Part shown: positions 44,122-61,015 of the stretch, in pieces
Numbering within the stretch: position 1 is the first letter of the stretch
Layout: each line of letters opens with the position of its first letter
From: Gemmatimonadota bacterium
GTDB taxonomy: Bacteria; Gemmatimonadota; Gemmatimonadetes; Gemmatimonadales; GWC2-71-9
DNA: 64,000 nucleotides
Assembly: GCA_029262195.1 (NCBI GenBank)
Contig: JAJCZX010000003.1
Location: 17,499-81,498, forward strand
Reading direction: 5' to 3'
Translations under genes and position numbers: made by a program
Notes under the pieces: generated by a model
Told to the model about the DNA's origin: nothing
What the model saw: only the letters and a program-made list of their open reading frames with translations
Database searches by the model: none

Positions 44122-45306
44122 ATGAGTCTTGAATTACCGGTCCTGAAGGAGAGACGCGCCGAACGGAAAAACGCGCCCCCTCCCACAGAAGATGTCAGAG
44201 AGAAGGTTTTCGAGATCGAAGCGCAAGGCGATTGGATTGTACATCGCGTTCCCGACGATCACGTTGAGGTTTTTACCAAATATGGACGGGTCAAGAAGAT
44301 TCCCCGGCAGAACCTCTGGCACCACAAGTCCTGTGGCCAATGCGGTCATATTCCCGGATACTCTACCGCCATTTTTTGGCTAATGCGAAAACTTGGTCTC
44401 GCGTATGAAGATCCCACCGACCAAACCTCCTGTACGGCCTGGAACTACTATGCCTCTGCGACTTCCAATGCGGCAGCCCAGGCGGGGGTAGCAATGAGGA
44501 ATTTTGGGGCGGCGTATGAAGCGGGGAACTACCCGTTGATCCATTGTGGTACGTCTTATGGTCACTATAAAGAAGTCCGCGAGGAGTTGATCCACGATCC
44601 TGAGCTTCGCAAGCAGGTGAAGGGAATAATGGAAAAGCTGGGCAAGCCCTTTGTCATGCCGGAAGAAATTGTTCACTACAGCGAGTGGGTGTACGCAATG
44701 CGTAGGGAGCTTGCCAACCTCAAAGTTCTCGACTTTTCGGACATCACCGCCACAGTTCACCCGGCCTGTCACTACCACAAGCTGGTGGTAGAAGATGCGA
44801 TATATGACCGGGACATCTACGATGGTCAGCGCACCGCCGTGGTAACCGCGGTGGTCGAAGCGCTGGGTGCCAATATCGGTGAGTATTCCACCTGGTACGA
44901 CTGCTGTGGTTTCGGGTTTCGACACATTCTGGTTGAACGCGATTTTACTCGCTCCTTTGCAATTGAACGCAAAATTGAAGTCATGAAAAAGGAAGCCAAT
45001 CCGGATGTGGTCCTGACACACGATACCGGTTGCGTGACAACCCTTGACCAGAGCCAGTTTGCCGGACGGGCGCATGACAGGGACGTGGGCATTCCCGTGC
45101 TCTCCGATGCGCAGTTCGCCGCTCTGGCAATGGGGGCCCACCCTTACAAAGTCTGCCAGTTACACTGGCACAATACCGACAACAAACCCTTGCTGGAAAA
45201 AATGGGAATAGACCACGAATCAAAATGGGCGGAGTTCGAAGAGGAACTCCGGATGATAGAAGCTGGTGAAAAGGAGTTTCTGACCTGGGAGGACGCCGAT
45301 GGCTAA
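44122..45306 (+). CDS. shdrB1: Heterodisulfide reductase-like subunit B1 (CCG domains)
   Basis: Cys-rich CCG-domain motifs (CGQCGH..., HPACHYH, WYDCCGFGF, TGCVTT). Confidence 0.8.
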   Translation: MSLELPVLKERRAERKNAPPPTEDVREKVFEIEAQGDWIVHRVPDDHVEVFTKYGRVKKIPRQNLWHHKSCGQCGHIPGYSTAIFWLMRKLGLAYEDPTDQTSCTAWNYYASATSNAAAQAGVAMRNFGAAYEAGNYPLIHCGTSYGHYKEVREELIHDPELRKQVKGIMEKLGKPFVMPEEIVHYSEWVYAMRRELANLKVLDFSDITATVHPACHYHKLVVEDAIYDRDIYDGQRTAVVTAVVEALGANIGEYSTWYDCCGFGFRHILVERDFTRSFAIERKIEVMKKEANPDVVLTHDTGCVTTLDQSQFAGRAHDRDVGIPVLSDAQFAALAMGAHPYKVCQLHWHNTDNKPLLEKMGIDHESKWAEFEEELRMIEAGEKEFLTWEDADG

Positions 45307-46348
45307 GGACGTATTGATCGTCGGCGGCGGGCCCGCCGGATTGCATGCCGCTCGCAACATCGCGGACATCGGAGGCAATGCGATTCTCGTTGAACAGCGT
45401 GATGTTCTGGGAGGGACACCCGACGAAGCCCGGTATGCTGCTCTGACTCCGCACCTCGAGTCGGCACAGGACGCGTTGGATGAGATGAGAGCTGCGGTTA
45501 TCGACCGGCCAGAAATCGATTTGCGATTGGGTTCCACCGTGCTCGAAAGCTCAGGTAAGGCTGGCGACTTCAAAGTTTCGGTCGCCAAAAATGGCGGAGA
45601 GGCTGAACAGCTCGATGTCGGGTCGGTGATCCTGACTACCGGGTTCCAACATTTTGATCCGGGTCGTGAGACTCAGATGTACGGTTATTACGAAAACCCT
45701 GACGTTATCACACTGGTCGACGCCGAGAAGATGTTGAGTAAGCACGAATTTGTGAGGCCGTCAAACGGGGAAAAGCCTGAACGGGTTGCGTTTATTCAGT
45801 GTGTTGGCTCGCGGGACCGTCGTCTTGGTAACGAGTACTGCTCCAAGGTTTGCTGCGGTATCGCATCGAAAGAGGCAATTGAAATACGGAAGCTGTTGCC
45901 CGACACCAAGGTTTACATCTTCTACATCGACATGAGGATGTATGGCTACTGGGAGAATCAGCTGTACTGGCCGGCGCAGGAGGAACACAATGTCATATAT
46001 GTGCGTGGGATCGTAACCGAAATTCTCAAACGGGGCGACCGTCTCCTTATGAAGGGCGAAGACACAACGATGGGTCGCCCTATGGAGGTGGAGATGGACG
46101 TCATTGTTCTGTCGGTTGGGATGGAGCCCAGCGCTGGCACCCGTGAGATGGCTCGTGTCTTTGATATAGAGAAGAACAAATACGGATTCATCCATACTCC
46201 GGGCGAACCGATGGATCCGGTAAGTACCTCCGTGCCGGGGGTTTATGTGGCTGGGGCTGCGGCTGGTCCCAAGGACATCGAGGACAGTATCGGGATGGCG
46301 AGTGCGGCTGCGATGAAAGCGCTGGCTATGGTTCGGTCGGCCGGGTGA
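45299..46348 (+). CDS. shdrA: Heterodisulfide reductase-like subunit A (FAD plus [4Fe-4S] flavoprotein)
   Basis: VLIVGGGPAGLHAA dinucleotide fold. HdrA cluster motif CVGSRD...YCSKVCC. 8-nt overlap with shdrB1. Confidence 0.85.
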   Translation: MAKDVLIVGGGPAGLHAARNIADIGGNAILVEQRDVLGGTPDEARYAALTPHLESAQDALDEMRAAVIDRPEIDLRLGSTVLESSGKAGDFKVSVAKNGGEAEQLDVGSVILTTGFQHFDPGRETQMYGYYENPDVITLVDAEKMLSKHEFVRPSNGEKPERVAFIQCVGSRDRRLGNEYCSKVCCGIASKEAIEIRKLLPDTKVYIFYIDMRMYGYWENQLYWPAQEEHNVIYVRGIVTEILKRGDRLLMKGEDTTMGRPMEVEMDVIVLSVGMEPSAGTREMARVFDIEKNKYGFIHTPGEPMDPVSTSVPGVYVAGAAAGPKDIEDSIGMASAAAMKALAMVRSAG

Positions 46349-47103
46349 CACAGGTGACTGATTCTGGCACCCGGGTTCTCGACGCGCCCAGCGCAGTCGA
46401 GTTCATGCGTGAGGCGCTTGTCAAAATTTCCGAATCGGAAATTGCCGAGGTTGCATCCCAACTAGAGCAACGTAGAGATCTGTTGTTTCCCATGCTCGAG
46501 CGGGTCATCGATGGGCGTGGAAGCGTCGGAGATCTATCGACGTTGTGGCGTGGCGTCTTTGTTACGCGGAGAACAGCCACCGACCTATCAGCTTCCCGCA
46601 CGATGGAGAGTTGGGCGGAAAGTTTGCGCGAGCTGGTAAAGGGCCAGGATGATTTGCCGGTTCGGTTCAGTCGTTTCGATGCCGCATTACACCAACATGA
46701 AGAGTCCTTTCGACGCGACCTGGCCGGCGAGATGCTCAGGCTTTTTGACCCCGATGAATACTGGCTGTGGTCACGTTGGATGTGGAATGAAAAAACCGAT
46801 ACCGGGTCTCTTCCGCTTGTACTGGCGGAGGGGTTTGATCTCTCAGGGGACACTGCGGGAGAGATTTACCTGAAAGTCGGTGACGCTACGAAAGTTGTGA
46901 TAGATACCGCAAGCGAGATTGGTTTTGCCGGCATGAAGGCCAACTGCTACGCGGTCGACGTTTATCTCTGCGCCATTTATGGCATTTACCTCTACACCGT
47001 AACCCGTATGCGAATGACACAGGAGTTCAATCGGGTGATTCCCAAACTACCGGAGTTGGTTCGCCGTATGCTGGGTGTCCATCGCCTTGAGGTGGGATCG
47101 TGA
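46345..47103 (+). CDS. shdrH: sHdrH-position protein, function unknown
   Basis: 252 aa with no cofactor motifs. GTGA overlaps on both sides (with shdrA and with the HdrC/B fusion). Confidence 0.6.
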   Translation: MTQVTDSGTRVLDAPSAVEFMREALVKISESEIAEVASQLEQRRDLLFPMLERVIDGRGSVGDLSTLWRGVFVTRRTATDLSASRTMESWAESLRELVKGQDDLPVRFSRFDAALHQHEESFRRDLAGEMLRLFDPDEYWLWSRWMWNEKTDTGSLPLVLAEGFDLSGDTAGEIYLKVGDATKVVIDTASEIGFAGMKANCYAVDVYLCAIYGIYLYTVTRMRMTQEFNRVIPKLPELVRRMLGVHRLEVGS

Positions 47104-48380
47104 GTCGCGTCGATAAAACCGAGGGCTCAATTGAAAAAGCCGAAGCCGTAGTTGACGGAGTTGATATTTCCGGACACTGGAACCGGATGTTGGAGCCCCG
47201 CTGGATCACTGATTACCCAACGGAGGCGATGGACTGGGTGACGAGCCTGGATGGGGGCGAATCCCTCAGAGCCTGCTACCAGTGTGCCAAGTGCGTGCCC
47301 GTTTGCCCTGTCGAACATGTTGGCTCTTACGGGCCACGGAAGCTCATGCGGAAGGTGCAACTCGGGAACAACCTCATGGAGGACCCTGACCTATGGTTGT
47401 GTACTTCGTGTGCGGCGTGTTTGCGGGTGTGTCCCAAAGAAGTGGACATGCTTCAGATAATGCCTGCGATCAGAGAGCAAGCGGTCCTCGAAGGTCATGT
47501 TCCCCCGGAATTGGCTAAGGCGTTTGAAAACATGGGGAGGCACGGTAACCCTCTGGGCCAACCGTCGCGCAAGCGTATTGCCTGGACCAAAGGTTTTGAT
47601 GTCGAAGTTCCAATCATGTCCAAGATCAAACGCAAGGTTGACGTGCTCTGGTATGTCTCGGACTACACGTCTTACCATCCCCGCGGCCACGATGCAGCCA
47701 GAGCTATGGCCCGTGTGCTCACGCGACTGGGAATTGATTTTGCCATACTTGGCCAGGAAGAAAAATGCGACGGAGATTCCCCACGCGTCGCCGGAGAGAA
47801 GGGGTTGTTCGAAATGCTGGCGGAAGAGAATATCGCCACCTTCGACAAGTATGAGTTTGACAGGCTAGTCGTCATGGACCCGCATGCGTACAACGCTTTT
47901 AAGAACCATTATCCTGCACTGGGTGGGGATTACAACGTTTTGCACTACACTCAACTTCTGGTCGACTATATCGACAGGATGGAGTTCAGCGAAACTTTGG
48001 ACATGGAAGTCACTTTCCACGATCCATGCTATCTGGGTCGTCACAACGGAGAGTACGAGGCGCCACGGAAACTTCTTGAGGCTATACCGGGAGTGAAACT
48101 CACGGAGATGCCGCACTACAAGGCCACCGGTTTTTGTTGCGGTGGTGGCGGCGGAGGAATGTGGTTGGACGGGTTTGCTGCCGATCACCAGAGTGAGCGA
48201 CTGAGCGAGCGAAGGGTGAAGGAAGCTGTCGAAGTAGGTGCTCAGACGCTCGCCGTGACCTGTCCTTACGAGCCCTCCCGTTTCGAAGACGCAGTCAAAA
48301 GCACAGGCAACGACGGAAGCCTTGAAGTTGCGGATATCATCGAACTATTAGACAGAGCCATGGGGCTCTCGGAGTCGTAG
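47100..48380 (+). CDS. shdrB3: HdrC-HdrB fusion protein (sHdrB3-type; two [4Fe-4S] motifs plus two CCG domains)
   Basis: CYQCAKCVPVCP and CTSCAACLRVCP, then FHDPCYLGR and GFCCGGGGG. Collinear with the soluble part of the Emo-like protein. Confidence 0.75.
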   Translation: MSRVDKTEGSIEKAEAVVDGVDISGHWNRMLEPRWITDYPTEAMDWVTSLDGGESLRACYQCAKCVPVCPVEHVGSYGPRKLMRKVQLGNNLMEDPDLWLCTSCAACLRVCPKEVDMLQIMPAIREQAVLEGHVPPELAKAFENMGRHGNPLGQPSRKRIAWTKGFDVEVPIMSKIKRKVDVLWYVSDYTSYHPRGHDAARAMARVLTRLGIDFAILGQEEKCDGDSPRVAGEKGLFEMLAEENIATFDKYEFDRLVVMDPHAYNAFKNHYPALGGDYNVLHYTQLLVDYIDRMEFSETLDMEVTFHDPCYLGRHNGEYEAPRKLLEAIPGVKLTEMPHYKATGFCCGGGGGGMWLDGFAADHQSERLSERRVKEAVEVGAQTLAVTCPYEPSRFEDAVKSTGNDGSLEVADIIELLDRAMGLSES

Positions 48381-48383
48381 CAG

Positions 48384-49154
48384 ATGAACATAGTGGTTTT
48401 AGTAAAACAGGTGCCCGACCTGGCGGAGGAGTTTGAGGTCAACTCTGACGGAACCGAGTTGGACGAAGATTGTCTTTCCTGGGTTCTTAACGAATTTGAC
48501 GATCACGCTCTTGAGGAGGCCCTCCACCTGAAGGAAGAGACCGGCGGTTCGGTCACGGTTCTGGCGCCGGGTTTTGAAGGAGTTGAAGACGTTCTGTTCA
48601 CGTGCCTGGCCAAGGGCGCCTCGAAAGTTGTGAAGGTCGGCGACTTCGACGTCAGTCCTGACTCCCATTCAATTGCCGCCGTGATGGCGAAGGCTCTTGG
48701 CGAGATTGCTCACGATGTCGTGTTAACCGGTGTCCAATCGGTGGCTGATCTCGATGGTCAGGTTGGCCCTCTTCTGGGGGCTAATCTTGGGATTCCTCAC
48801 GTGAGTGTCGTTACACACGTTTCAATAAACTCCGCTGCCAAAACTGCCACGATCAATCAAGAGTATGCCGGTGGAGTCCTTGGCGAGTTTGAGGTGAGTC
48901 TTCCGGCTGTGCTGGGAATCCAGGCGGCCCGAGAACTGCCGCGCTATGCCCCGGTGAGTCGGGTACGACAGCTGATGAAGACCGAGACTATCGATGAGGT
49001 CGCGTGTGATGTCGGGATGGGTGGTGGGCTGGTGGTCAAGAAAATGTCACCACCCGAAGTGGTAGGGCATGCGGAGATGATTGAAGGGGACGAGGACGAA
49101 GTGAGCGAAAAAATTGTCGCGATTCTTGGCGACGCCGGCCTGATAAATAAGTGA
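48384..49154 (+). CDS. etfB: Electron transfer flavoprotein beta subunit
   Basis: MNIVVLVKQVPD... EtfB N-terminus and a C-terminal PRYAP...IR arm. Confidence 0.9.
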   Translation: MNIVVLVKQVPDLAEEFEVNSDGTELDEDCLSWVLNEFDDHALEEALHLKEETGGSVTVLAPGFEGVEDVLFTCLAKGASKVVKVGDFDVSPDSHSIAAVMAKALGEIAHDVVLTGVQSVADLDGQVGPLLGANLGIPHVSVVTHVSINSAAKTATINQEYAGGVLGEFEVSLPAVLGIQAARELPRYAPVSRVRQLMKTETIDEVACDVGMGGGLVVKKMSPPEVVGHAEMIEGDEDEVSEKIVAILGDAGLINK

Positions 49155-50131
49155 GCCCTGAGATGAGCAACGATATTTTTGTTCTGATTGAACACAGAGA
49201 TGGCAAGGTTAGTGAGAACGCGTACGAGCTTTTAGGTAAGGCTCGTTCCCTGGCTGCCGCCGCCGGGGGGTCCGTCACGGCTCTCGTACTGGGCCAGGGC
49301 GTTGGAAACATGGCATCCAGTTTGGGCGCGGCGAACAAAGTACTGGCCGTCGAAGGCGATTCGGTTGCGCAGTTTACGCCAACGGGTTATGTGAATGCCC
49401 TTACACCGATAGTCGAAACCGGTAATCCTTTACTTACGCTGGTGCCAAACACCGCGGTGGGAATCGACGTTGCAGCGGGGTTGTCTGCTGCATTGAAACT
49501 TCCGCTGGCGTCATACGCAATCGGGATTGAGATCGCAGACGGTTTGCCCTCGATTGTGTGTCAGACACTGGGCGGAAAGATCAATACCGAAGTTGGGTTT
49601 ACCGTTGGCCGAGGAATTGTTGCGGTAAATGGTGGCGCGTTTGCGGCTGACGACGGGCGCATCGAAGGTCAACCGTTAGTGGAGACTCTGTCTGCATCCG
49701 GTGATGCTGCAGGCGTCGTGTTCAAGAGATTCATCGAGCCGGAATCAGGCGATGTCGATATTACGAAGGAAGACATCCTGATTTCTGTTGGGCGTGGCAT
49801 CGAAGAGAAGGACAACATCGAACTCGCCGAAGAGCTTGCCGAAGCGATGGGTGGAGCGGTGTGTGCTTCCCGCCCGGTAGTCGACGCAGGTTGGTTGCCC
49901 AAGAGCAGGCAGGTAGGAAAATCCGGTCAAACCGTCAAGCCGAAACTGTATGTGGCTGTAGGAATAAGCGGGGCTCCTGAACACCTCGAAGGAATGAGAG
50001 ATGCTGAATTGGTCATCGCCATTAACTCCGATGCGTCGGCTCCGATATTCGGTGCAGCGCATTACGGGGTGGTTGGGGATCTATTCGATATCCTCCCGGC
50101 GCTGACCGAGAAAATCGGGGAGGCTGGCTAA
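49151..50131 (+). CDS. etfA: Electron transfer flavoprotein alpha subunit
   Basis: IFVLIEH N-terminus. FAD-binding C-terminal motifs (SRPVVDAGW, QVGKSGQTVKP.LYVAVGISGA.EH). GTGA overlap with etfB; an alternative ATG lies at 49163. Confidence 0.9.
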   Translation: MSPEMSNDIFVLIEHRDGKVSENAYELLGKARSLAAAAGGSVTALVLGQGVGNMASSLGAANKVLAVEGDSVAQFTPTGYVNALTPIVETGNPLLTLVPNTAVGIDVAAGLSAALKLPLASYAIGIEIADGLPSIVCQTLGGKINTEVGFTVGRGIVAVNGGAFAADDGRIEGQPLVETLSASGDAAGVVFKRFIEPESGDVDITKEDILISVGRGIEEKDNIELAEELAEAMGGAVCASRPVVDAGWLPKSRQVGKSGQTVKPKLYVAVGISGAPEHLEGMRDAELVIAINSDASAPIFGAAHYGVVGDLFDILPALTEKIGEAG

Positions 50132-50132: not shown

Positions 50133-52274
50133 GTGATAACGGCGGTGCAGCAGGAAGTTACTCGCGAAGTTTTTCTTAACTTCTCGACCACCGCCAAGGT
50201 CGTTTTCTACGTTGTCGCGAACGCGGCCATTATCGTTTTTTTCTGGGGCTCCTGGCTCAAGGTCCGAAAGTACAGGCGCGGGTTACCGGATAATCGGTTT
50301 CAGTTCCTGTTCAGGAGACTGGCTACTGCGGGATCCCAGTACGTTGCCAACAGGACCGTAGCCAGGCGCAACCCGATTGTGGGGTTGTCCCACAGCCTGA
50401 TTGTCTGGGGTTTCCTGGCGTTATTTATTGGCACCGTAATCCTCACTATTGACGAAGACATCCTGGGAATAATCCTACCTCAGTACCAGTTCTTCCACGG
50501 CGCTTTCTATCGCTGGTACTCGGTAGTCCTGGACGTACTCGGTGTGGGCTTCCTGATCGGGCTTGTCGCGATGGGCGTGAGACGGGGGTTCGCCAGGCCG
50601 AAAGCTCTGGATTATTCGAGAGTTGACCGTTCCCAAAATGAAACCAGTCGAGGTGGCTTCAAACGCGGCGATTGGCTCTTCCTGGGGCTCCTCTTCTTCA
50701 TTGGCGTCACCGGATATCTACTTGAAGGGTTCCGCATTGCTGGAACCGGGTTCCCAGAGTTTGAAAGATGGTCTCCGGTGGGTTGGTGGCTTGCCGGGGT
50801 TTTTCAGGGATTCGGATGGGTGGGCGATGCAGGGCTGGATGCTCACAAGGTCACCTGGTGGGTCCACGGTGCCGCAGCGCTTGGTTTCGTAGGGTACATA
50901 CCCTACTCCAAGGCGATTCACGTCGTCGTCGATTCGCTTAATATCGCCTTCAAAGATCCGCTGGCTGGAAAACGGTTGCCCGCGGCTGCTGAGGGGGCCG
51001 ACCACCTTGGCCAGAGGGACCTCGGCGACTTCACGTGGAAACAACTACTGGACTTCGACGCCTGCACCAAGTGCGGTAGATGTCATGTGGTGTGTCCGGC
51101 CCGGCTTGCCGGGGCTCCACTGTCGCCTCGCGATCTGATTCTCGATATGCGCCAGCACGCGGATGCGTCACTCGCGTTCCTGGCTCCCGGACATGAAAAA
51201 CTTGCCAACCCCGGATTCGGGGATGCGACTGCAATGATTCCAGGTTCAGTGATTGGAGCCGACACACTCTGGGCCTGCACCACATGTTTGGCCTGTGTGG
51301 AGGCCTGTCCGGTCGGTATTGAGCACGTGCCAACCATAGTTGGTATGCGCCGCAACCTTGTCGACCAGGGTGAAATTGAGTCGATGCTTCAGTCGACGCT
51401 TGAAAACTTCGGAAAAAAGGGCAACTCGTTCGGCAAATCAGGTCGGATGAGGGCCAGGTGGGCGAAAAGTCTTCCTTTCAAGATCAAAGACGCGCGCAAG
51501 GAACCTGTCGACGTTTTGTGGTTTGTGGGTGACTATGCGGCGTTCGATGAAACGGTTCAAGAAACAACACTAAAAGTTGCGCGGGTCTTTGACGCGGCCG
51601 GTTTGAATTTTGGAATTTTGTATGAAGGAGAGCAGAACGCGGGTAATGATGTAAGGCGCGCCGGAGAAGAGGGTCTTTTTGAGATGCTCGCAGAACACAA
51701 TATCGCTGAGTTGGAAAAGGCTGATTTCAAGGAAATCGTCACGACGGACCCCCATTCTCTCAACGCTCTGCGGAACGAATACCCCGAACTCGGAGCGTCT
51801 TATCCGACCGTTCACTACACCGAACTCCTTGTTCGCCTGATCGAAAACGGATCCATCAAGATTGCGAACCCAATGGGTCGCAGAGTAACCTACCACGACC
51901 CGTGCTACCTTGGTCGTTATAACGACGTTACCGAAGCTCCACGCACCTTGATGGCGCTGTGCGGATCGACTGTCGTCGAAATGCCACGGCATGGGAAGAA
52001 TTCATTTTGCTGCGGTGCGGGTGGTGGGCGGATCTGGATGGATGACAGTGCTCTGGAAGAACGCCCCAGCGAAAACAGGATTAAGGAGGCAGCGGAGCTT
52101 ACAGGAATAACGGATTTCGTGGTCGCCTGCCCAAAGGACATGTCCATGTTTAGAGCGGCGGCCAGCACAACCGGTCTGGATTCAAAACTTCAGGTCACCG
52201 ATGTAATCGATCTCGTCGTGGAAGCGATGGGGTTGGACCTCTCGGACTCCGATGACAAAGAGCAAGAAGGGTAG
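50133..52274 (+). CDS. emo: Membrane-bound Etf:quinone oxidoreductase-like FeS protein (Emo/DUF224 type: NarI/DsrM-like TM domain, 2x[4Fe-4S], CCG domains)
   Basis: About five N-terminal TM helices with conserved His residues. CTKCGRCHVVCP and CTTCLACVEACP. YHDPCYLGR and FCCGAGGG. Confidence 0.75.
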   Translation: MITAVQQEVTREVFLNFSTTAKVVFYVVANAAIIVFFWGSWLKVRKYRRGLPDNRFQFLFRRLATAGSQYVANRTVARRNPIVGLSHSLIVWGFLALFIGTVILTIDEDILGIILPQYQFFHGAFYRWYSVVLDVLGVGFLIGLVAMGVRRGFARPKALDYSRVDRSQNETSRGGFKRGDWLFLGLLFFIGVTGYLLEGFRIAGTGFPEFERWSPVGWWLAGVFQGFGWVGDAGLDAHKVTWWVHGAAALGFVGYIPYSKAIHVVVDSLNIAFKDPLAGKRLPAAAEGADHLGQRDLGDFTWKQLLDFDACTKCGRCHVVCPARLAGAPLSPRDLILDMRQHADASLAFLAPGHEKLANPGFGDATAMIPGSVIGADTLWACTTCLACVEACPVGIEHVPTIVGMRRNLVDQGEIESMLQSTLENFGKKGNSFGKSGRMRARWAKSLPFKIKDARKEPVDVLWFVGDYAAFDETVQETTLKVARVFDAAGLNFGILYEGEQNAGNDVRRAGEEGLFEMLAEHNIAELEKADFKEIVTTDPHSLNALRNEYPELGASYPTVHYTELLVRLIENGSIKIANPMGRRVTYHDPCYLGRYNDVTEAPRTLMALCGSTVVEMPRHGKNSFCCGAGGGRIWMDDSALEERPSENRIKEAAELTGITDFVVACPKDMSMFRAAASTTGLDSKLQVTDVIDLVVEAMGLDLSDSDDKEQEG

Positions 52275-52280: not shown

Positions 52281-52718
52281 ATGGGCGATGCACGCGGCTG
52301 TAATATTCCCGAAGATCGTTATTACTGGGTAGAGAAGCACGTTTGGGTGAAAGAAGACCAAGGCGGCGTGTTTCTAGTTGGCATGACTGATGTCGCCCAG
52401 AACATGGCGAGTGCACTCGTTGCGGTGACTCCCAAACGGGCAGGCCGGTCGATAACCAAAGGGAAGAGTGTTGCGACGGTCGAAAGTGGTAAGTGGGTGG
52501 GCCCAATTCCCGCCCCGGTAAGCGGTGAAATCGTTGAGATCAATGAGGCCTTGAAAGCCGATCCCGGTATCGCTAATCGCGATCCCTACGGGGAAGGTTG
52601 GGTGGTGAAATTCAAACCTGATGATTGGGCCGGTGAGGGTGTTGGATTACCGACTGGTGCAGAGGCCGTTACCGCATACGATGCGTTCCTTGAGCAAGAG
52701 GGAATAAGCTGCGAGTAG
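52281..52718 (+). CDS. lbpA: GcvH-like lipoate-binding protein (LbpA)
   Basis: Lipoyl-lysine context ATVESGKWVGPIPAPVSGEIVEIN. Confidence 0.8.
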   Translation: MGDARGCNIPEDRYYWVEKHVWVKEDQGGVFLVGMTDVAQNMASALVAVTPKRAGRSITKGKSVATVESGKWVGPIPAPVSGEIVEINEALKADPGIANRDPYGEGWVVKFKPDDWAGEGVGLPTGAEAVTAYDAFLEQEGISCE

Positions 52719-52728: not shown

Positions 52729-53181
52729 GTGTCGGTGTGGCGCGGGTGCGATATCCCGGAAGATCTTTGGTACGACATTGATCGTGACGTTTGGATCCGT
52801 GTGGAAGGCGATGGGACGGTTACTGTGGGAATGACGGACCCGGCGCAAACGCGGTGCGGAATGCTGGTGCACCTGCAGATCAAGCGACCGGGTCGAAAAG
52901 TGGTGAGAGGGCGGAGCATTGCGACTGCGGAGAGTGCCAAGTGGGTTGGGCCGTTTCCGGCACCGGTGTCCGGAGAGATTGTTGGGACGAATCAGACCGC
53001 GTTTGACGACGATGTTCGGATAGCGAATAAGGACCCCTACGGGGGCGGCTGGATAGCCCGGCTTCTCCCGGACGACTGGGCAGGTGAAGTTGAGCAGCTG
53101 TCGACGGGAAAAGATGCTGTGGAGAAGTACAAGCAACGAATCGAAGCGATCGGCGTTAACTGCATGAGGTGCGCCGAGTAG
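52729..53181 (+). CDS. lbpA: GcvH-like lipoate-binding protein (LbpA), tandem paralog
   Basis: Lipoyl-lysine context ATAESAKWVGPFPAPVSGEIVGTN. Confidence 0.8.
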   Translation: MSVWRGCDIPEDLWYDIDRDVWIRVEGDGTVTVGMTDPAQTRCGMLVHLQIKRPGRKVVRGRSIATAESAKWVGPFPAPVSGEIVGTNQTAFDDDVRIANKDPYGGGWIARLLPDDWAGEVEQLSTGKDAVEKYKQRIEAIGVNCMRCAE

Positions 53182-53206: not shown

Positions 53207-53782
53207 ATGGGCAGCACGATTGATGGCCGAGGTGCTATTACTGCCGAGATGGAAGAGTTGATCGCACAGAAGGTGGCTGAGGCGATTGCCGCGAAGGAAG
53301 CGGAAAAGGCTGACGCACCGAAAAAGATGACGATCATTGCGACAAAGGGTACGCTGGACTGGGCCTACCCTCCTCTAATTTTGGCCTCTACCACGGCTGC
53401 TCTGGGCTGGGAGGTCGGGATCTTCTTTACCTTCTACGGTTTGAACATCATTCACAAAAAGAAGATCAAGAAACTGGCAGTAGCCCCTCTGGGAAATCCA
53501 GCCATGCCAATGCCTGTGCCAAACATCATAGGGGCGATCCCTGGGATGACTGCGGTGGGCACGGCAGTGATGAAGAAAATGTTCAAGAGCCACGGAGTTG
53601 CGTCTATTGAAGAACTCCTGGAAATGTGCATCGACCTTGACGTGAAGTTGTTCCCATGTGGCATGACCATCGAAGTGTTTGGATATGACCCCAAGGATTT
53701 CGTTGACGGAATCGAGCCTCTCTGCGGGGCGGCGCATTTCGTCGAATATGCGGCTGACGCGGATGTTTCGCTGTTTATCTGA
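53207..53782 (+). CDS. dsrE: DsrE/DsrF-like family protein (DsrE3-type) with an N-terminal charged extension
   Basis: MTIIATKGTLDWAYPPLILAS...IFFTFYG core. Conserved Cys in KLFPCGMT. Confidence 0.7.
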   Translation: MGSTIDGRGAITAEMEELIAQKVAEAIAAKEAEKADAPKKMTIIATKGTLDWAYPPLILASTTAALGWEVGIFFTFYGLNIIHKKKIKKLAVAPLGNPAMPMPVPNIIGAIPGMTAVGTAVMKKMFKSHGVASIEELLEMCIDLDVKLFPCGMTIEVFGYDPKDFVDGIEPLCGAAHFVEYAADADVSLFI

Positions 53783-53821: not shown

Positions 53822-55363
53822 GTGTTGATGGCTGCACCATCAGTTGCAGAAGCAAATCATGAGTTGAAGTGGGCCAAGACGATTGATCACACGAAGTGCA
53901 TTGGTTGCCATGCGTGTACGACGGCCTGCAAGTCCGAAAACGAAGTTCCGTTGGGTGTAACTCGTACCTACGTGAAGTACGTTGACGTGGGTGTTTTCCC
54001 GCAGGCGCACCGCGCGTTTCAGGTTACTCGTTGCAACCAGTGCGAGGATGCGCCGTGTGCCAAAGCCTGTCCGACGGCCGCGATGCACAAACGCCCTGAC
54101 GGGATAGTCGACTTCGACAAATCGATTTGCATCGGCTGCAAAGCTTGTATCGCTGCGTGTCCGTACGATGCAATTTTCATTAACCCCGAGGACCACTCTG
54201 CGGAGAAGTGCAACTTTTGCGCGCATCGAATTGATGTTGGGCTGGAACCAGCATGCGTCGTCGTCTGCCCGACCGAAGCGATCATGGTTGGCGATCTAAA
54301 CGACCCGACCTCCGGTGTGGCGCGAATGGTAGATAGGGAACCCGTCACGGTGCGCCGTCCGGAGAAAGGCACCCTCCCGAAACTGTTCTACAAAGGTGCT
54401 CGCCAGGTGACGTTGGACCCGATCGCGGCAAAGCGGCCCGGTGGCGGACTTTTCATGTGGAGTGAGCAGCTTACCGGAACCCAAAGAGTTGTTTCTGGTC
54501 ATCCGGGCGAAAACAATAGTTCGGCTGCGGCGGTGCTGTCGTACGATGTTCCGCATAAAGCTCCCTGGGATTGGCGAGTGAGCCTCTATACCTGGACGAA
54601 GGGCGTTGCGGCAGGGGCTTATCTTGTGCCGCTACTGATTTTGATGATGGGTGGAATAGGACCGGACGACCCTCTCTGGGTGTGGGTCGCGCCGATCATG
54701 GCCGGAATAGGGCTCGCTCTGACCGGCGTTCTGTTGATATGGGACCTGGAACATCCCGAACGCTTTTACATGCTGTTCACACACGCCCAGTGGAGTAGCT
54801 GGTTGGTCCGCGGCGGGTTCATTATCGGCGCCTACTCTGCAGTTCTGGGTTTGCATTTTCTCGGTTCTGTGCTGGACGTGCCGGACATCCGGCGGCTTTT
54901 GATTCTACCAGGGTTCTTTTTGGCTGTGATGACTTCCGTTTACACCGCATATCTGTTCGCACAGTCCAAGGGACGGGATATGTGGCAGAACCCGCTCCTG
55001 GTACCGCACCTGCTGATACAGAGTCTAATGTTGGGTGCAGCTCTCCTGTTGGTTTTTGCCCCGCGCGGTATGTCATCAGTGACAGGGCACCTCCACTGGA
55101 TGCTTCAGATTACCATCCTGATCCACCTCGCTCTGGTAATGGGCGAGGTTTCGATGCCCCATCCCACTGCACATGCCAAACTCGCCACGCAGGAAATGAT
55201 TGCGGGTCGCTTTGGCGGGTTTTTCTGGGTCGGGATACTGATGGTTATGGTGGGACTCGCTGCTCCGTGGTTGGGAGTGGCGGTGGTGCCGTTTGTCGCT
55301 GTCGGACTTTTTGCTCACGAGCATGCCTGGGTGCAGGCCGGCCAATCTGTGCCGCTGGCCTGA
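53822..55363 (+). CDS. Fused 4x[4Fe-4S] subunit (PsrB/NrfC/SoeB-like) and NrfD-type 8-TM quinone-interacting subunit (PsrC/SoeC-like)
   Basis: Residues about 1-200 carry CIGCHACTTAC, CNQCEDAPCAKACP, CIGCKACIAACP and CNFCAHR...CVVVCP. Residues about 245-513 form eight hydrophobic helices. The reading frame is uninterrupted. Confidence 0.75.
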   Translation: MLMAAPSVAEANHELKWAKTIDHTKCIGCHACTTACKSENEVPLGVTRTYVKYVDVGVFPQAHRAFQVTRCNQCEDAPCAKACPTAAMHKRPDGIVDFDKSICIGCKACIAACPYDAIFINPEDHSAEKCNFCAHRIDVGLEPACVVVCPTEAIMVGDLNDPTSGVARMVDREPVTVRRPEKGTLPKLFYKGARQVTLDPIAAKRPGGGLFMWSEQLTGTQRVVSGHPGENNSSAAAVLSYDVPHKAPWDWRVSLYTWTKGVAAGAYLVPLLILMMGGIGPDDPLWVWVAPIMAGIGLALTGVLLIWDLEHPERFYMLFTHAQWSSWLVRGGFIIGAYSAVLGLHFLGSVLDVPDIRRLLILPGFFLAVMTSVYTAYLFAQSKGRDMWQNPLLVPHLLIQSLMLGAALLLVFAPRGMSSVTGHLHWMLQITILIHLALVMGEVSMPHPTAHAKLATQEMIAGRFGGFFWVGILMVMVGLAAPWLGVAVVPFVAVGLFAHEHAWVQAGQSVPLA

Positions 55364-55372
55364 GGGAATAAA

Positions 55373-58264
55373 ATGACTGCTAAGAAGACTGTTGGAGTAA
55401 CGAAGGAAGAAACTCAAGATCGGGGGGAGACCCACTACCCTGGTTCAAGTCGCACTTCTCTGGCCGCATACCCTCCGAAGGAACGGTGGGATGATTGGGT
55501 GGAGCTGGATTCAAAGTCGTGGCCAGAAAAAGTTGAAAAGCGATACCGGCTCGTTCCCACAACGTGTTTCAATTGTGAATCCGCCTGTGGACTCCTGGCG
55601 TACGTTGATCGGGAGACCGGGGAGATTCGCAAACTGGAAGGCAACCCCGAACACCCGGGGTCCCGCGGGCGCAATTGTGCCAAAGGGCCAGCGACCGCAA
55701 ATCAGATTCAGGACCCTGATCGAATTCTCTATCCCATGAAAAGAGCAGGTGAGCGGGGTGAAGGGAAATGGGAACGAGTCGATTGGGAAGAGGTGTTGGA
55801 CGTTGTTTCCGAAAAAATTCGCAGGGCGATTGATGAGGATCGGCACAACGAGGTCATGTATCATGTTGGTCGACCGGGCGAAGATGGATTTACCGAGAAA
55901 ATCCTTGCCGCCTGGGGAGTAGACGGCCATAATTCGCACACCAACGTTTGCTCATCTAATGCCCGGGCCGGTTATCAGTTCTGGATGGGTATGGATCGCC
56001 CGAGCCCCGACTACGGCAATGCGAAAGTCATTCTGCTGATCTCGGCTCATCTTGAGACCGGGCATTATTTCAATCCGCACGCGCAGCGGATAATGGAAGC
56101 AAAGAATAATGGCGCAAAACTGATTGTATTTGACACGCGGCTCTCGAACACAGCTACTCACGCCGACCATTGGATTTCTCCGTTCCCCGGATCTGAAGCG
56201 GCGATCTTGCTCGCGATCGCTAACTATTTGATCCAGAACAAACTCTACAATCGGACATACGTGGAACGGTGGTTCAACTGGCGGGAATTTATGGCCGCTG
56301 AACGATCGAATGTTGAGGCGACGTTCGAGAATTTTGAAAATGAACTCGTCGAGCTATATGCCGAATACACGTTTGAATTCGCGGCGGGAGAATCGGGCGT
56401 GGATGCTGATACACTCAAAGCGGTAGCTGAAGTCGTGGCTACAAGCGGTACACGGCTGGCGTCACACAACTGGCGCAGTGCCGGGGCGGGGAATGAAGGA
56501 GGCTGGCAGGTTGCTCGCACGTTGTTCTTTTTGAACGCCCTGCAGGGGGCGGTGGCAACGGAGGGTGGGACGTGTGGGAACGCGTGGAATAAATTCGTTC
56601 CCAAACCGATGATTGTGCCGCCGCATCCCGATAACTGGAATGAGCTTACCTGGCCGGTCGAGTACCCTCTTGCGATGAACGAGCTGTCGTTTCTCCTGCC
56701 ACATTTTTTGAAGTCCGGGCGGGGCAAGATCGATACGTATTTCAGTAGAGTCTACAATCCAGTGTGGACCAACCCTGATGGATTCACCTGGATCGAGATA
56801 CTGAAAGATCCAGACCTGGTAGGGCTTCACATTGCTATGACTCCCACGTGGAACGAGACGGCCTACTTTGCGGACTACGTAATACCCATGGGCCACAGTC
56901 CAGAACGACACGACCTTACGTCTTACGAAACTCAGCATGGCCAGTGGATCGGATTCCGTCAGCCCGTGTTGCGAACGCTGGCTGAAAAGGACGGTCGCAC
57001 AATAACCGATACGCGAGAGGTAAACCCGGGCGAGGTGTGGGAGGAAAACGAGTTCTGGCTTGAGTTAACCTGGCGCATTGATCCTGACGGTAGCCGGGGA
57101 ATCCGCAAACACGTTGAGTCGCGCAAGAAACCGGGCGAGCGTGTCTCCGTCGACGAGTATTATTCCTATTCGTTCGAAAACTCTGTTCCCGGACTTCCGG
57201 AGATAGCGGCCGAAGAAGGCCTTTCGGCTCTGGAGTACATGCGCAAGTACGGAGTGTTTGAAGTAAAAAAGAAGCAGGGCGAGTTGAATGAATCGGAGGT
57301 CCCCGCTTCTGAGTTAGACGACGTCGCCGAAAACGAATTCGGCAGAGTGTACACGAGAACACCGAAACCAGCCTCGCCCAACATTGCGCCGACAGGTGCT
57401 CCGGACGACGATTCGGAAGGTCGCCGAGCCGTTGGTGTCCGAGTAGATGGCAAAGTTCTAAAAGGTTTCCCAACTCCAAGCGGATTATTGGAATTCTATT
57501 CTCCAACGCTCGCTCGCTGGGGTTGGGGTGAAGCAGCTATTCCGACATACATGAAGAGTCATGTTCATCCAGACAACCTTGGTGATGGTCAATTCGCTCT
57601 TATATCTACCTTCCGCCTACCGGTACAGATTCATACTCGAAGTGCCAACGCTAAGTGGTTGGACGAGATAGCACACACCAACCCTCTGTGGATCAACACG
57701 GTTGATGCGGCTCGCCTCGGCTTGCGGACTGGCGACCTTGCCCGGGTGAGTACGGAGATCGGTTATTTCGTGTTGAAGACATGGGTTACAGAGGGAATTC
57801 GCCCGGGCGTTGTCGCCTGCAGCCACCACATGGGGCGCTGGAAGGTGGGAGAAGAGGGCCAGAGGCAGAACATGGCTACTGTTGATCTCCAGAACGACGG
57901 CACCAGTTGGAAGATCACTCGGAAAAAGGGTGTTGCACCGTATGAATCTTCTGATACTGATACGTCCAGGATCTGGTGGAGTGATGCCGGGGTCCATCAG
58001 AACATTACGTTTCCTGTGCATCCCGACCCGGTTTCTGGCCAGCATTGCTGGCATCAAGCTGTGCAAGTGGAAAAGGCTCATCAAGACGACGCAGCCGGCG
58101 ACATTAGTGTCGACACAGCGAAATCAATGGCGGCTTATGAAACCTGGATGGCCAAGGCTCGGACGGCTCATGACCATTCCCCGGACGGTACGCGTCGGCC
58201 CCACTGGATAATGCGGCCTCTAAAACCGGGGAAAGAACACTTCAAACTCCCACCAAAACGTTGA
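55373..58264 (+). CDS. Molybdopterin (bis-MGD) oxidoreductase catalytic subunit of the Psr/Phs/Ttr/Soe clade, without a Tat signal (SoeA-like)
   Basis: FS0 motif CFNCESAC...RNCAKG. Cys Mo-ligand region HTNVCSSNARAG. 963 aa. The N-terminus has no RRxF(L/K) twin-arginine motif and no hydrophobic h-region. Confidence 0.75.
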   Translation: MTAKKTVGVTKEETQDRGETHYPGSSRTSLAAYPPKERWDDWVELDSKSWPEKVEKRYRLVPTTCFNCESACGLLAYVDRETGEIRKLEGNPEHPGSRGRNCAKGPATANQIQDPDRILYPMKRAGERGEGKWERVDWEEVLDVVSEKIRRAIDEDRHNEVMYHVGRPGEDGFTEKILAAWGVDGHNSHTNVCSSNARAGYQFWMGMDRPSPDYGNAKVILLISAHLETGHYFNPHAQRIMEAKNNGAKLIVFDTRLSNTATHADHWISPFPGSEAAILLAIANYLIQNKLYNRTYVERWFNWREFMAAERSNVEATFENFENELVELYAEYTFEFAAGESGVDADTLKAVAEVVATSGTRLASHNWRSAGAGNEGGWQVARTLFFLNALQGAVATEGGTCGNAWNKFVPKPMIVPPHPDNWNELTWPVEYPLAMNELSFLLPHFLKSGRGKIDTYFSRVYNPVWTNPDGFTWIEILKDPDLVGLHIAMTPTWNETAYFADYVIPMGHSPERHDLTSYETQHGQWIGFRQPVLRTLAEKDGRTITDTREVNPGEVWEENEFWLELTWRIDPDGSRGIRKHVESRKKPGERVSVDEYYSYSFENSVPGLPEIAAEEGLSALEYMRKYGVFEVKKKQGELNESEVPASELDDVAENEFGRVYTRTPKPASPNIAPTGAPDDDSEGRRAVGVRVDGKVLKGFPTPSGLLEFYSPTLARWGWGEAAIPTYMKSHVHPDNLGDGQFALISTFRLPVQIHTRSANAKWLDEIAHTNPLWINTVDAARLGLRTGDLARVSTEIGYFVLKTWVTEGIRPGVVACSHHMGRWKVGEEGQRQNMATVDLQNDGTSWKITRKKGVAPYESSDTDTSRIWWSDAGVHQNITFPVHPDPVSGQHCWHQAVQVEKAHQDDAAGDISVDTAKSMAAYETWMAKARTAHDHSPDGTRRPHWIMRPLKPGKEHFKLPPKR

Positions 58265-58462: not shown

Positions 58463-61015
58463 ATGACTAATCGCTCTCGATTCCTGTTTGTGACAATAGC
58501 AGCGGCTGTGTCCCTTGGCGCCGTCCGCGCAGACTCGTTGAAAGCCCAGGACTCCGTCACCGTTGTAGCCGGACCCGACTATGAATCGGGTCGGCTTAAC
58601 CGATGGCTTTTCGGAAGCTCTTACCGAGATCTGTGGACAACACCGATTACCGTGCCTTACCTGGATGTCACCGGTTATGCCGGAGGACTGACCCCGGTGC
58701 GGACGGGGGGGTTCGGACAAACTACGTCCTTGCACTTTAACGGCGCCGACGGTGTCCGGTATGTTTTCCGTTCGATCGACAAAGATCTTTCTCGGCGTCT
58801 CGCAGATGAGCTCAAAGGCACGTTTGCGGAAGACATTATCCAGGATCAAACCAGCGCGTACAATCCGGTTGCAGCACTGATTACGTCCCCTCTTGTTGAG
58901 GCTGCGGGTGTTCTCGCGGCGAAGCCAGAGATATACGTTATGCCCGACGACCCGGCGCTTGGCGAGTATCGTGAGGCCTATGCGGGAATGTTGGGGTTGA
59001 TGATGGAAAACCCCGACGAGGGCGAAGACAACACCGAAGGCTTCGCCGGTTCTCGGAGGGTTTCCGGGTCCGATGCCATGTTGAGGTCAGTTGAAAACAG
59101 AATCGACACGCGGGTGGATGCGGTTGGTTTCCTTAAGGCGAGACTCCTCGATATCTATCTCGGGGATCGCGATCGACATAAAGGGCAGTGGAAATGGGCG
59201 CGGTTTGATACTCCCGAGGGTGGACGTATATGGGAGGTTGTTGCTGAGGATCGTGACCAGCCGTTCGTCAAGCAGGACGGCCTCATCCTTGGTATTGTCC
59301 GCTCATTCTTCGTGCGGAAGTTGACGAACTTCTCCGCCGATTACACCAATATGCCTGGCCTTACCTGGAACGGTTGGGACCTGGACAGGCGTTTCCTGGC
59401 GGGTCTTGAGAGAAGTGTGTGGGATTCGGTTGCGGTGGATCTCCAACGTCGCTTGACCGACGAGGTTATAGAGGATGCGTTAAGTCGTTTCCCGCCCCCG
59501 TACATGGAATTACGTGGAGACGAACTGCGACATGAGTTGAGGACAAGACGGGATAACCTGCATCTTGCCGCGACGGAGTACTACGAATTTCTGGCCGGTT
59601 GGGTCGATGTACACGGGACGGATGAAGCTGAAGTAGCCGAAATCGATAGGAACGACGACGGATCTATGGATGTTATTCTCCGGCGAGTGGGAGACGCCGC
59701 GGCCGAACCGCATTTTCGTCGTCACTTCATAAGCTCGGAAACTGGAGAGGTAAGAATACACCTCCACGGTGGCGCCGACTCCGCTGTTGTACGGGGCGAC
59801 AACGGTGCCATGAATGTGCGGGTCGTGGGTGGGGGTGGAGCAGACGTGCTAATAGATCAATCGCACGCGCGGACCAATTTTTATGATGGCGGCGGGCGTA
59901 CCACGGTGGTCCGTGGGCGGCGAACCTCGTATGACGGCCGTGATTACACCGCACCACCGTCACCCGATTTCGCCCACGAAGCGCCACCAGATTTTGAGCG
60001 TTGGTTGCGAGTTATTCCTGGTTTCAGCTTCGCGCCCGACATTGGTCTTTATGTCGGAGCAACGGTAGATCAACTCAGATATGGGTTCCGCAGATTTCCG
60101 TTCAGTTCGCGGATTGGAGTGGTGGCGGGTTTCTCTTTCGGGACCAACCAGCCCACAGTAGGCGTTTCCTATCAGAAAAGACAGGCGCTCAGAAATATTC
60201 ACATCGGGTTTGATGCTATCGTCTCTTCGTTGCATCTGGTACGGTTTCATGGCTTTGGCAACGAGACCACGATCTCGGGCCCATCGGACTTTTACGAAAC
60301 CAGGCTTACGCAATCGTCCTTTGCCGTTCCCTGGCTATTCGACCTCGCCGAAGGTGTGGAATTCGGACTCAGCCCCGTTGGCAAGATCACTGTTTCTGAC
60401 GCGGACGATATCACGCGGCTTGCTGCAGACGCTCCGTATGGGATTGGCACCTTCGGACAGGCCGGGTTGAACGCCCACCTTTCCATTGACCGTCGTGATC
60501 GACCGGTGGCAGCGTCAAAAGGCTTTTATCTTCGCGGCGAAGGCGCTTATTACCCTTCTATATTTGACGTTGTCGAATCCTTCGGGAGGATTGAAGGTGA
60601 AGCTTCGACGTATCTTAGTGCCGGGCCAGCCACGCTCGCCCTGAGAGGTGGTGGGGCAAAGGTTTGGGGGATGTTCCCGTTCCACGAAGCCGCTTATTTA
60701 GGTGGGGCTACTACTCTGCGCGGGTTTTCAGAAAACCGGTTCGCAGGAGATGCTGCCGTATACGGAAACGCCGAACTGCGCGTTCGCCTGACGACCGTGC
60801 GCATCATTTTCCCGCTCGGCTTTGGCGTGCACGGACTTGGTGATGTGGGCCGCGTGTGGTCGGATCTCGACCCGTCGGGAACGGATGATCTCCACACGGC
60901 CGTTGGTGGAGGGATCTGGTTCTCCCTCATGGGGCCAGCCAATACCTTGAGTTTCTCGGTGGCAAACAGTGACGAGAACACCTCGCTGTACATCAACGCC
61001 GGGTTCATGTTCTAA
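58463..61015 (+). CDS. Omp85 (BamA/TamA-like) family outer-membrane protein with a large uncharacterised N-terminal region
   Basis: Signal peptide. C-terminal barrel motifs (LGGATTLRGFSENRFAGDAAVYGNAELR) and a terminal aromatic ...NAGFMF. Confidence 0.65.
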   Translation: MTNRSRFLFVTIAAAVSLGAVRADSLKAQDSVTVVAGPDYESGRLNRWLFGSSYRDLWTTPITVPYLDVTGYAGGLTPVRTGGFGQTTSLHFNGADGVRYVFRSIDKDLSRRLADELKGTFAEDIIQDQTSAYNPVAALITSPLVEAAGVLAAKPEIYVMPDDPALGEYREAYAGMLGLMMENPDEGEDNTEGFAGSRRVSGSDAMLRSVENRIDTRVDAVGFLKARLLDIYLGDRDRHKGQWKWARFDTPEGGRIWEVVAEDRDQPFVKQDGLILGIVRSFFVRKLTNFSADYTNMPGLTWNGWDLDRRFLAGLERSVWDSVAVDLQRRLTDEVIEDALSRFPPPYMELRGDELRHELRTRRDNLHLAATEYYEFLAGWVDVHGTDEAEVAEIDRNDDGSMDVILRRVGDAAAEPHFRRHFISSETGEVRIHLHGGADSAVVRGDNGAMNVRVVGGGGADVLIDQSHARTNFYDGGGRTTVVRGRRTSYDGRDYTAPPSPDFAHEAPPDFERWLRVIPGFSFAPDIGLYVGATVDQLRYGFRRFPFSSRIGVVAGFSFGTNQPTVGVSYQKRQALRNIHIGFDAIVSSLHLVRFHGFGNETTISGPSDFYETRLTQSSFAVPWLFDLAEGVEFGLSPVGKITVSDADDITRLAADAPYGIGTFGQAGLNAHLSIDRRDRPVAASKGFYLRGEGAYYPSIFDVVESFGRIEGEASTYLSAGPATLALRGGGAKVWGMFPFHEAAYLGGATTLRGFSENRFAGDAAVYGNAELRVRLTTVRIIFPLGFGVHGLGDVGRVWSDLDPSGTDDLHTAVGGGIWFSLMGPANTLSFSVANSDENTSLYINAGFMF

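Follow-up and report, generated by a model that had tools for sequence, protein, structure and literature searches.

The window analysed here, a 64,000-nucleotide stretch of contig JAJCZX010000003.1 (assembly GCA_029262195.1) from a Gemmatimonadota bacterium, carries at positions 53,822 to 58,264 two adjacent genes for a predicted membrane-bound molybdoenzyme. The first gene (BC) encodes an iron-sulfur (FeS) subunit and an NrfD-type membrane anchor in one polypeptide, and the second (A) encodes a catalytic subunit of the molybdenum-bis(pyranopterin guanine dinucleotide) (Mo-bisPGD) type that has no twin-arginine translocation (Tat) signal. On their strand the two genes form the end of a complete type II shdr operon, BC lying 39 nt past dsrE2. 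An earlier note, made from the letters of this DNA alone, had placed the pair at the end of that operon and had described a four-motif ferredoxin part and an eight-helix NrfD anchor in one frame, followed 9 nt later by a 963-residue subunit with an FS0 motif and a Cys-type Mo-ligand region; each of these features was recovered here and can be given exact positions (Table 1).

The BC polypeptide matches both Pfam Fer4_11 (E=6e-24, residues 66-158) and NrfD (E=5e-13, residues 246-482). Its true start is probably the ATG at 53828 (511 aa), which is preceded by an AAAGGG Shine-Dalgarno-like stretch and is also the start of an identical database protein (P0121, 511 aa). BC contains exactly 16 cysteines and every one of them lies within the four cluster motifs quoted previously (C26/29/32/36, C71/74/79/83, C103/106/109/113 and C130/133/145/149). 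The best solved match of the B domain is Thermus PsrB (2vpw_B, E=7e-49, 49% identity in the fold alignment), and its top NCBIfam matches, TtrB, NrfC and DsrO, are each under their own cut-off. A phmmer search with the membrane domain against solved NrfD-type chains gave no sequence match, and fold comparison was used instead. The AlphaFold model of the C domain (predicted local distance difference test (pLDDT) 86-97) has helices at residues 249-273, 282-306, 325-348, 352-381, 391-410, 417-442 and 463-507, and its top Foldseek match is Thermus PsrC (2vpw_C, target-normalised TM-score 0.75, root mean square deviation 3.6 Å).

The solved proteins closest to subunit A are Shewanella ArrA (6cz7) and Thermus PsrA (2vpw, E=1e-34 for PsrA). 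The segment around Cys193 aligns by phmmer with equivalent cysteine-containing segments of both proteins, whose cysteines we take to be Mo ligands, and 345 positions of A are invariant across about 120 homologs. In Tat-bearing relatives (P0265, P0290 and P0322) the YPPKERWDDW-type motif (YPPxExW) of the N-terminal extension comes straight after the Tat signal, and the extension is therefore part of the mature protein; by analogy with NarG, it is perhaps a tail that binds a chaperone or the B domain. BC and A share a reading frame, with TGA GGG AAT AAA between them before the ATG of A (window 55361-55375). The gap between the two genes in relatives varies from overlaps to a spacing of about 25 nt, or to inserts of kilobases, so the shared frame in the window looks coincidental.

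Spread of the fusion and placement of the family

An independent Logan assembly (L001) contains the identical operon, with 100% identity over the fusion. The top 120 BC homologs, of about 500-560 aa and mostly about 66-71% identity with a few closer, are all fused, and thousands of homologs, including those of cultured isolates, carry the fusion. Among the latter, finished replicons with the fused gene include a megaplasmid of Thermomicrobium roseum (59% identity for A), plasmid pRHL3 of Rhodococcus jostii RHA1 (56%) and the haloarchaeon Natrinema halophilum (51%). An assembly artefact, which the earlier note had raised together with a survey of relatives, is ruled out as the cause of the fusion by the identical independent assembly and by these isolate replicons.

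A scan of GTDB with one genome per species gave 600 matched stretches, at least 594 of which were confirmed with relatives of A; the locus counts from the enzyme side given below refer to the best 80 of those at least 594 loci, with 67-73% identity for A. The 80 loci come from Acidobacteriota, Gemmatimonadota, Actinomycetota, Chloroflexota, Binatia and one gammaproteobacterial metagenome-assembled genome (MAG). BC lies upstream of A in 65 of them, and 12 of the other 15 are too short there, leaving 65 of 68 informative loci. Far from being peculiar to this operon, the fusion is the defining, ancient architecture of a very large family that spans Bacteria and Archaea and is present in at least 594 GTDB species genomes. 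In Pyrinomonadaceae loci (L004, L005, L007, L022, L025, L076 and others) inserts of 0.5-3.8 kb separate BC from A, which are adjacent in most other lineages.

In the more distant Sulfurovum mangrovi locus (37% identity for A) B and C are two genes that abut each other, and the order is B-C-A-chaperone. Its B subunit ends with the motif that starts the linker of the window protein, which suggests that the B-C fusion arose by plain loss of a stop codon. The catalytic homolog on this S. mangrovi plasmid (L086, 6010-9178) is split into two overlapping open reading frames (ORFs) with no entry in the PLSDB gene table, which may reflect a frameshift, a pseudogene or a sequencing error, and it apparently has no room for a Tat signal. 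A 4Fe-4S dicluster protein of about 370 aa is encoded past the TorD-like chaperone both in S. mangrovi (L086, 10001-11140) and in Azoarcus KH32C (L087, 10081-11187); this protein of the distant relatives is without counterpart in the fused family.

No curated NCBIfam model reached its cut-off with the window protein. The PhsA model (NF012032) scored best, at 191 bits where its cut-off is 694, and formate dehydrogenase models came out lower than PhsA. A resemblance to ttrBCA, pointed out before, is one of gene order only, and membership of TtrBCA is ruled out by the curated-model scores (TtrA 118 bits against 1750, TtrB 180 against 416) and by the lack of a Tat signal. Membership of ArrAB is likewise ruled out (ArrA 115 bits against 1600, ArrB 151 against 450). 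The three modules of a complex iron-sulfur molybdoenzyme (CISM) with an NrfD-type anchor are all present, namely an FS0-containing Mo-bisPGD subunit, a four-cluster ferredoxin and an NrfD module, and the Tat signal and periplasmic active site that define Psr/Phs enzymes were not found.

A tree was built after an exhaustive HMMER search of 1.84 billion representatives. The window protein and those of T. roseum and R. jostii form a tight Tat-less clade, and the next lineages are mixed, with P0262, P0266 and P0269 Tat-less and P0265, P0290 and P0322 Tat-bearing. The nearest outgroups are labelled thiosulfate/polysulfide reductase in IMG, and the other main branch comprises classic Tat-bearing Psr/Phs-like enzymes with 30-35% identity and about 340-350 bits on the PhsA model. 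All full-length Tat-less matches above 278 bits fall within the unnamed clade and the next best are Tat-bearing and Psr-like, while a search seeded with the Tat-less sister P0262 brought up nothing but unnamed proteins, followed by the main family once more. On this tree the family forms a Tat-less clade of its own within the Psr/Phs-like enzymes, unnamed and very widespread.

IMG gives the family names at the COG level only and gives KEGG orthology names to the Psr-like relatives, and some database entries label homologs 'formate dehydrogenase'. No Soe-named protein appeared among the strong matches and cluster look-ups, and none among the NCBIfam matches or the matching PDB structures. SoeA candidates on plasmids of Ralstonia, Thioclava, Phaeobacter and Variovorax were rejected, being unrelated molybdoenzymes (700-1100 aa) that have no NrfD partner. 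Neither a fused SoeBC nor a molybdoenzyme linked to type II shdr clusters is described in the literature searched; within it the family has neither a name nor a characterised member, and no account of its association with type II sHdr was found.

Membrane orientation and comparison with known enzymes

The N-terminus of A is hydrophilic, and a hydrophobic h-region in the first 60 residues was found in none of 120 homologs, which bears out the reported lack of a twin-arginine motif. A longer N-terminus is impossible since the BC stop codon (TGA, 55361-55363) lies in frame three codons ahead of the ATG of A, and an upstream alternative start is thereby excluded. An 'RRYxL' sequence in 76 of the 120 homologs was considered as a hidden Tat signal and rejected, as it is immediately next to the FS0 motif and no hydrophobic stretch follows it.

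The distribution of lysine plus arginine residues in the loops of the anchor is strongly asymmetric, with a mean of 8.8 on the side of the FeS domain versus 1.1 on the opposite side, and the same bias occurs in 121 of 121 BC homologs (12 versus 3 in the T. roseum fusion and 11 versus 0 in that of R. jostii). The Tat-dependent Azoarcus enzyme served as a control, and its separate NrfD subunit has the reversed bias, 3 versus 10. By the positive-inside rule, the catalytic side and the FeS domain are predicted to be cytoplasmic, as the earlier note had supposed for the active site. The BC module is thus predicted to be a PsrBC-like unit inserted upside-down relative to periplasmic PsrBC, as hypothesised for SoeBC. 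Both termini of PsrC are on the PsrAB side (PMC8076601) and, with the N-terminus of PsrC on the PsrB side, the joining of B to C therefore needs no extra helix. In a Tat-independent enzyme with its N-terminus inside, the fusion would fix both stoichiometry and topology, and the family would be a clear natural example of an inward-flipped and fused respiratory FeS-anchor module.

These features recall SoeABC, as known from Allochromatium vinosum (Alvin_2491-2489), Aquifex aeolicus (aq_1234-1231) and Sulfobacillus (TPY_0113-0115), with a catalytic subunit classed as KEGG K21307. Both systems combine Mo-bisPGD and FS0 with a FeS module of four clusters and a haem-free NrfD-type anchor of eight helices, both lack a Tat signal, both are predicted to have the catalytic side and the quinone site facing the cytoplasm (N side), and both occur alongside cytoplasmic sulfite-producing sulfur oxidation. 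One possibility is that the window enzyme is a canonical SoeABC ortholog, belonging to the bSreA/SoeA lineage, in which soeB and soeC are merely fused. The predicted orientation, the cofactors and the Cys ligand are alike, and SoeA of A. vinosum, at about 109 kDa, is about the size of subunit A. Wells et al. describe a large cytoplasmic bSreA/SoeA radiation (1,354 hits, 5 of them archaeal) that nearly collapses at 50% identity, resembling the 67-73% identity seen within the present family across phyla, and this radiation could include the window clade.

However, canonical Soe consists of three polypeptides in the order A-B-C (PMC5114278), whereas the family has a fused BC, then A, and often then a NarJ-like chaperone. 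Across KEGG species SoeC is limited to Proteobacteria, three Clostridia and Aquificae (PMC8076601), and Soe is described from Proteobacteria, Aquificae and Sulfobacillus. The range of the present family is a different one, with members in Acidobacteriota, Gemmatimonadota, Actinomycetota, Chloroflexota, Binatia and haloarchaea. Annotation pipelines do not assign the Soe label to the family, as in the COG-only names of IMG, and a Bohai Sea study did not detect SoeABC although its MAGs (L010, L021 and L067) carry the family. The confinement of the strong Tat-less matches to the unnamed clade, with Tat-bearing Psr-like proteins next, also argues against orthology, and we regard a merely fused Soe as quite improbable. 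The family probably does the job of SoeABC and, judged by the published descriptions of Soe, is probably not its ortholog. Of the term 'SoeABC-like' used in the earlier note, the predicted function and orientation stand, and family membership probably does not, given the gene order, subunit structure, annotation, range of SoeC and Tat-bearing nearest relatives outside the clade.

With the Psr/Phs enzymes the family shares the three modules and the Cys ligand context, Thermus thermophilus PsrABC (PDB 2VPW-2VPZ) providing the closest solved structures, and the distant Psr/Phs-like relative of Azoarcus KH32C even has the same B-C-A-TorD order. These enzymes differ in that they are reductases with a Tat-signal catalytic subunit facing the periplasm, separate B and C and the opposite charge bias of the anchor. 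The PSRLC3 or 'FqoABC' enzyme of Chlorobaculum tepidum (CT0494-CT0496), compared by description only, is another uncharacterised molybdoenzyme with an NrfD-type anchor. Its catalytic subunit is not known to carry a signal peptide, and it was reportedly once proposed as a sulfite oxidiser in green sulfur bacteria. It differs in having separate subunits, and there were no Chlorobi sequences among the close matches to the window family. An NrfD census lists PSRLC3 in Actinobacteria too, and its authors regard the A and B subunits as FdnGH-like (PMC8076601). TtrBCA shares only the order of its genes and differs in the Tat export of TtrA and the unfused B and C; nine helices are predicted for TtrC (PMC8076601).

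Gene neighbourhoods and proposed function

The association with sHdr was followed from both sides. Beginning with sHdr, the fused BC/A enzyme was found beside type II shdr in eight metagenome loci with relatives of sHdrB3. It lies downstream on the same strand in four of them (L106, L124, L125 and L142) and divergently upstream in L097, L140, L147 and probably L091, where only a B-domain fragment is visible. Of the sHdrB3-type type II shdr loci with about 10 kb on either side, 5 of 7 carry the fused enzyme, and the link to sulfite-producing sHdr noted previously hence recurs beyond this contig. The copies in L124, L125, L142, L097, L140 and L147 are fused and of a divergent subtype, with 56-62% identity for A and 32-37% for the C domain. 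By these identities, type II sHdr is accompanied by at least two subfamilies of the fused enzyme.

Beginning with the enzyme, proteins with a metallo-beta-lactamase (MBL) fold and a double rhodanese, of the persulfide dioxygenase type, are encoded in 30 of the 80 loci, and small rhodaneses (18 loci), DsrE (9), TusA (7) and SulP permeases (7) also recur, so that 44 of the 80 have some sulfur-related neighbour. A NarJ/TorD-family chaperone gene follows A in 40 of the 80 loci, as expected for a molybdoenzyme that is loaded with cofactor and not exported. The operon on pRHL3 of R. jostii RHA1 has the order DsrE-TusA-BC-A-Mrp/NBP35 and is flanked by MBL-fold genes and ArsR regulators, and in T. roseum a CsoR/CstR-type regulator gene is directly ahead of BC-A. 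In Rhodococcus and Natrinema an Mrp/NBP35 ATPase takes the place of the chaperone after A; no such ATPase was found anywhere in the 64-kb window.

Conceivably, these sulfur genes could be incidental neighbours of an enzyme for a non-sulfur substrate such as formate, a tentative proposal for the uncharacterised complexes of the 'FqoABC'/CT0494 type, or arsenite or a selenium oxyanion. The 'formate dehydrogenase' names of some homologs, the ArsR-family regulators adjacent in several loci and the roughly 45% of loci that have no sulfur neighbour would fit such a substrate. We consider it very improbable, as the Cys at the Mo-ligand position stands in a Psr/Arr-type context, formate dehydrogenase models score below PhsA, and the association with sulfur genes holds in several phyla and whether one starts from sHdr or from the enzyme. 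Persulfide sensors, moreover, are known in the ArsR/SmtB and CsoR families.

sHdr produces sulfite in the cytoplasm (PMC11094781). Both recurrent partners of the family, sHdr and persulfide dioxygenase, are cytoplasmic sulfite producers, and a sulfite:quinone oxidoreductase is therefore the most economical reading. We propose, at slightly better than even confidence, that the enzyme is a sulfite:quinone oxidoreductase facing the cytoplasm, for which we infer the substrate, the direction and the quinone type. It would be a two-polypeptide, membrane-bound CISM with its catalytic side towards the cytoplasm, in which oxidation of sulfite to sulfate is the most likely reaction of subunit A, with its Mo-bisPGD, Cys ligand and FS0. 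In the window the upstream type II sHdr-LbpA system would supply the sulfite, and in many relatives persulfide dioxygenase would do so. The two electrons would travel from Mo via FS0, then along the four [4Fe-4S] clusters of the B domain, and reach a quinone site close to the cytoplasmic face. The orientation and the function suggested in the earlier note hold up well, with genomic evidence for them that reaches far beyond this stretch of DNA; the substrate stays putative.

Several points weigh against this proposal. The best-scoring curated model, PhsA, is one for a reductase; about 45% of the family loci have no sulfur gene within 10 kb; and neither a NarJ-like chaperone nor SulP was found in the 64-kb window, which was also searched for a persulfide dioxygenase-rhodanese with the same result. 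The FeS domain was modelled by AlphaFold with low confidence (pLDDT about 25-45) and that part of the model was not used. Finally, with DsrE/TusA directly upstream, the substrate could be carrier-bound sulfur rather than free sulfite.

The last point leads to the alternative that the enzyme acts on a different sulfur species, either as a quinol-dependent reductase or cleaver of thiosulfate, polysulfide, persulfide or tetrathionate or as a dehydrogenase of sulfur bound to DsrE2/TusA. A precedent exists in the Aquifex enzyme, which was first reported as a 'sulfur reductase', and bacterial cytoplasmic SreA clusters with SoeA (Wells et al.). PhsA as top curated model, PsrA and ArrA as closest solved structures, and the thiosulfate/polysulfide reductase labels of the nearest outgroups are in keeping with a reductase, while DsrE2 directly upstream in the window, the DsrE-TusA pair of the R. 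jostii operon and the transfer of thiosulfonate from Metallosphaera DsrE3A to TusA (PMC11094781) are in keeping with a carrier. Set against these, the PhsA, TtrA and ArrA scores are all far under their cut-offs, both sHdr and persulfide dioxygenase yield sulfite, and the formation of sulfide in the cytoplasm beside sulfide-removing enzymes would make little physiological sense. Many of the hosts (Pyrinomonadaceae, Rhodococcus, Thermomicrobium, haloarchaea) are aerobic heterotrophs, and persulfide dioxygenase needs O2. On balance we judge a different sulfur species to be unlikely, although it is the main rival, and the tight DsrE/TusA linkage makes carrier-bound sulfur worth testing. A more specific form, in which a persulfide or thiosulfonate on DsrE2/TusA is the substrate and the enzyme, linked to quinone, is what SoxCD, the sulfane dehydrogenase of the periplasm, would correspond to in the cytoplasm, appears doubtful. 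Considerably more likely than this carrier-bound version is that the family arose separately from SoeABC, its periplasmic Psr-like ancestors having lost the Tat signal and inverted the anchor.

Sulfite is a toxic product of both sHdr and persulfide dioxygenase, and surveys that rely on soeABC, sorAB and aprAB as markers, such as the Bohai Sea study, report sulfite-oxidising enzymes to be rare or absent in soils and sediments. If the enzyme is a sulfite:quinone oxidoreductase, this gap would be closed for phyla that are abundant in soils and sediments (Acidobacteriota, Gemmatimonadota, Actinomycetota, Chloroflexota and haloarchaea). The type II sHdr pathway would then run through to sulfate and deliver all of its electrons to the quinone pool, and annotations as polysulfide/thiosulfate reductase or formate dehydrogenase would be corrected. 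The family might even be the main, hitherto unrecognised route for disposal of cytoplasmic oxidised sulfur in non-proteobacterial sulfur oxidisers. The sulfite hypothesis is directly testable because cultured hosts exist, among them the genetically tractable R. jostii RHA1.

The surrounding operon in the window

The genes around BC-A are listed in Table 1, and their arrangement fits the published definition of type II shdr clusters (PMC11094781). The tusA gene is below the length threshold of the ORF listing, and a spurious minus-strand ORF of 221 aa (42763..43428) overlaps it.

Table 1. Features of the BC-A pair and of the surrounding genes, with coordinates in the window (aa, amino-acid residues).
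Feature	Position	Strand	Basis or remark
BC subunit, FeS-NrfD fusion, 513 aa from GTG	53822..55363	+	ORF; Pfam Fer4_11 plus NrfD in single chain
B domain, aa 1-200, four [4Fe-4S]-type Cys motifs, no signal peptide	53822..54421	+	
B-C linker, aa ~201-245, extends the PKLFY..TLDP motif that ends the B domain	54422..54556	+	highly conserved in 121 homologs
C domain, aa 246-513, eight-helix NrfD/PsrC-type quinone-interacting anchor, 0 Cys, N-terminus on cytoplasmic side (predicted)	54557..55363	+	
Subunit A, Mo-bisPGD, 963 aa, Tat-less	55373..58264	+	Pfam Molybdop_Fe4S4, Molybdopterin, Molydop_binding
Hydrophilic N-terminal extension of A, aa 1-58, YPPKERWDDW motif	55373..55546	+	highly conserved across family
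FS0 [4Fe-4S] motif, C65-x2-C68-x3-C72-x29-C102	55565..55678	+	invariant in family
Cys193, predicted Mo ligand (HTNVCSS)	55949..55951	+	family-conserved
Radical-SAM protein	39502..40584	-	Radical_SAM; divergent from shdr operon
Radical-SAM protein	40685..41632	-	Radical_SAM; divergent from shdr operon
Third LbpA	41633..42091	-	GCV_H; divergent from shdr operon
ArsR-type regulator	42154..42573	+	Pfam HTH_5
TusA	~42764..42982	+	41% identity to R. jostii TusA by tblastn; between ArsR-type regulator and DsrE genes
DsrE-type protein	42907..43380	+	Pfam DsrE
sHdrC1	43392..44081	+	HdrC-type NCBIfam matches; CCG/Fer4 domains in sHdr block
sHdrB1	44122..45306	+	HdrB NCBIfam matches in sHdr block
sHdrA	45299..46348	+	HdrA NCBIfam matches in sHdr block
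Hypothetical protein	46345..47103	+	
Fused sHdrB3	47100..48380	+	CCG plus Fer4 domains in sHdr block
EtfB	48384..49154	+	ETF domain
EtfA	49151..50131	+	ETF_alpha domain
EMO, membrane HdrD-like	50133..52274	+	CCG and Fer4 domains
LbpA, lipoate-binding, GcvH-like, two copies	52281..52718, 52729..53181	+	GCV_H
DsrE2 sulfur carrier	53207..53782	+	SulfCarrDsrE2 207 bits against cut-off 210; Pfam DrsE_2 E=5e-50
Omp85-type protein	58463..61015		unrelated; next gene downstream of A

No tRNA genes were found in the window. The two divergent radical-SAM genes are probably lipoate-maturation genes of the LipS type (LipS1/LipS2), by analogy with described clusters (PMC11094781), and larger minus-strand ORFs at 36032..39505 may complete the lipoate maturation set.

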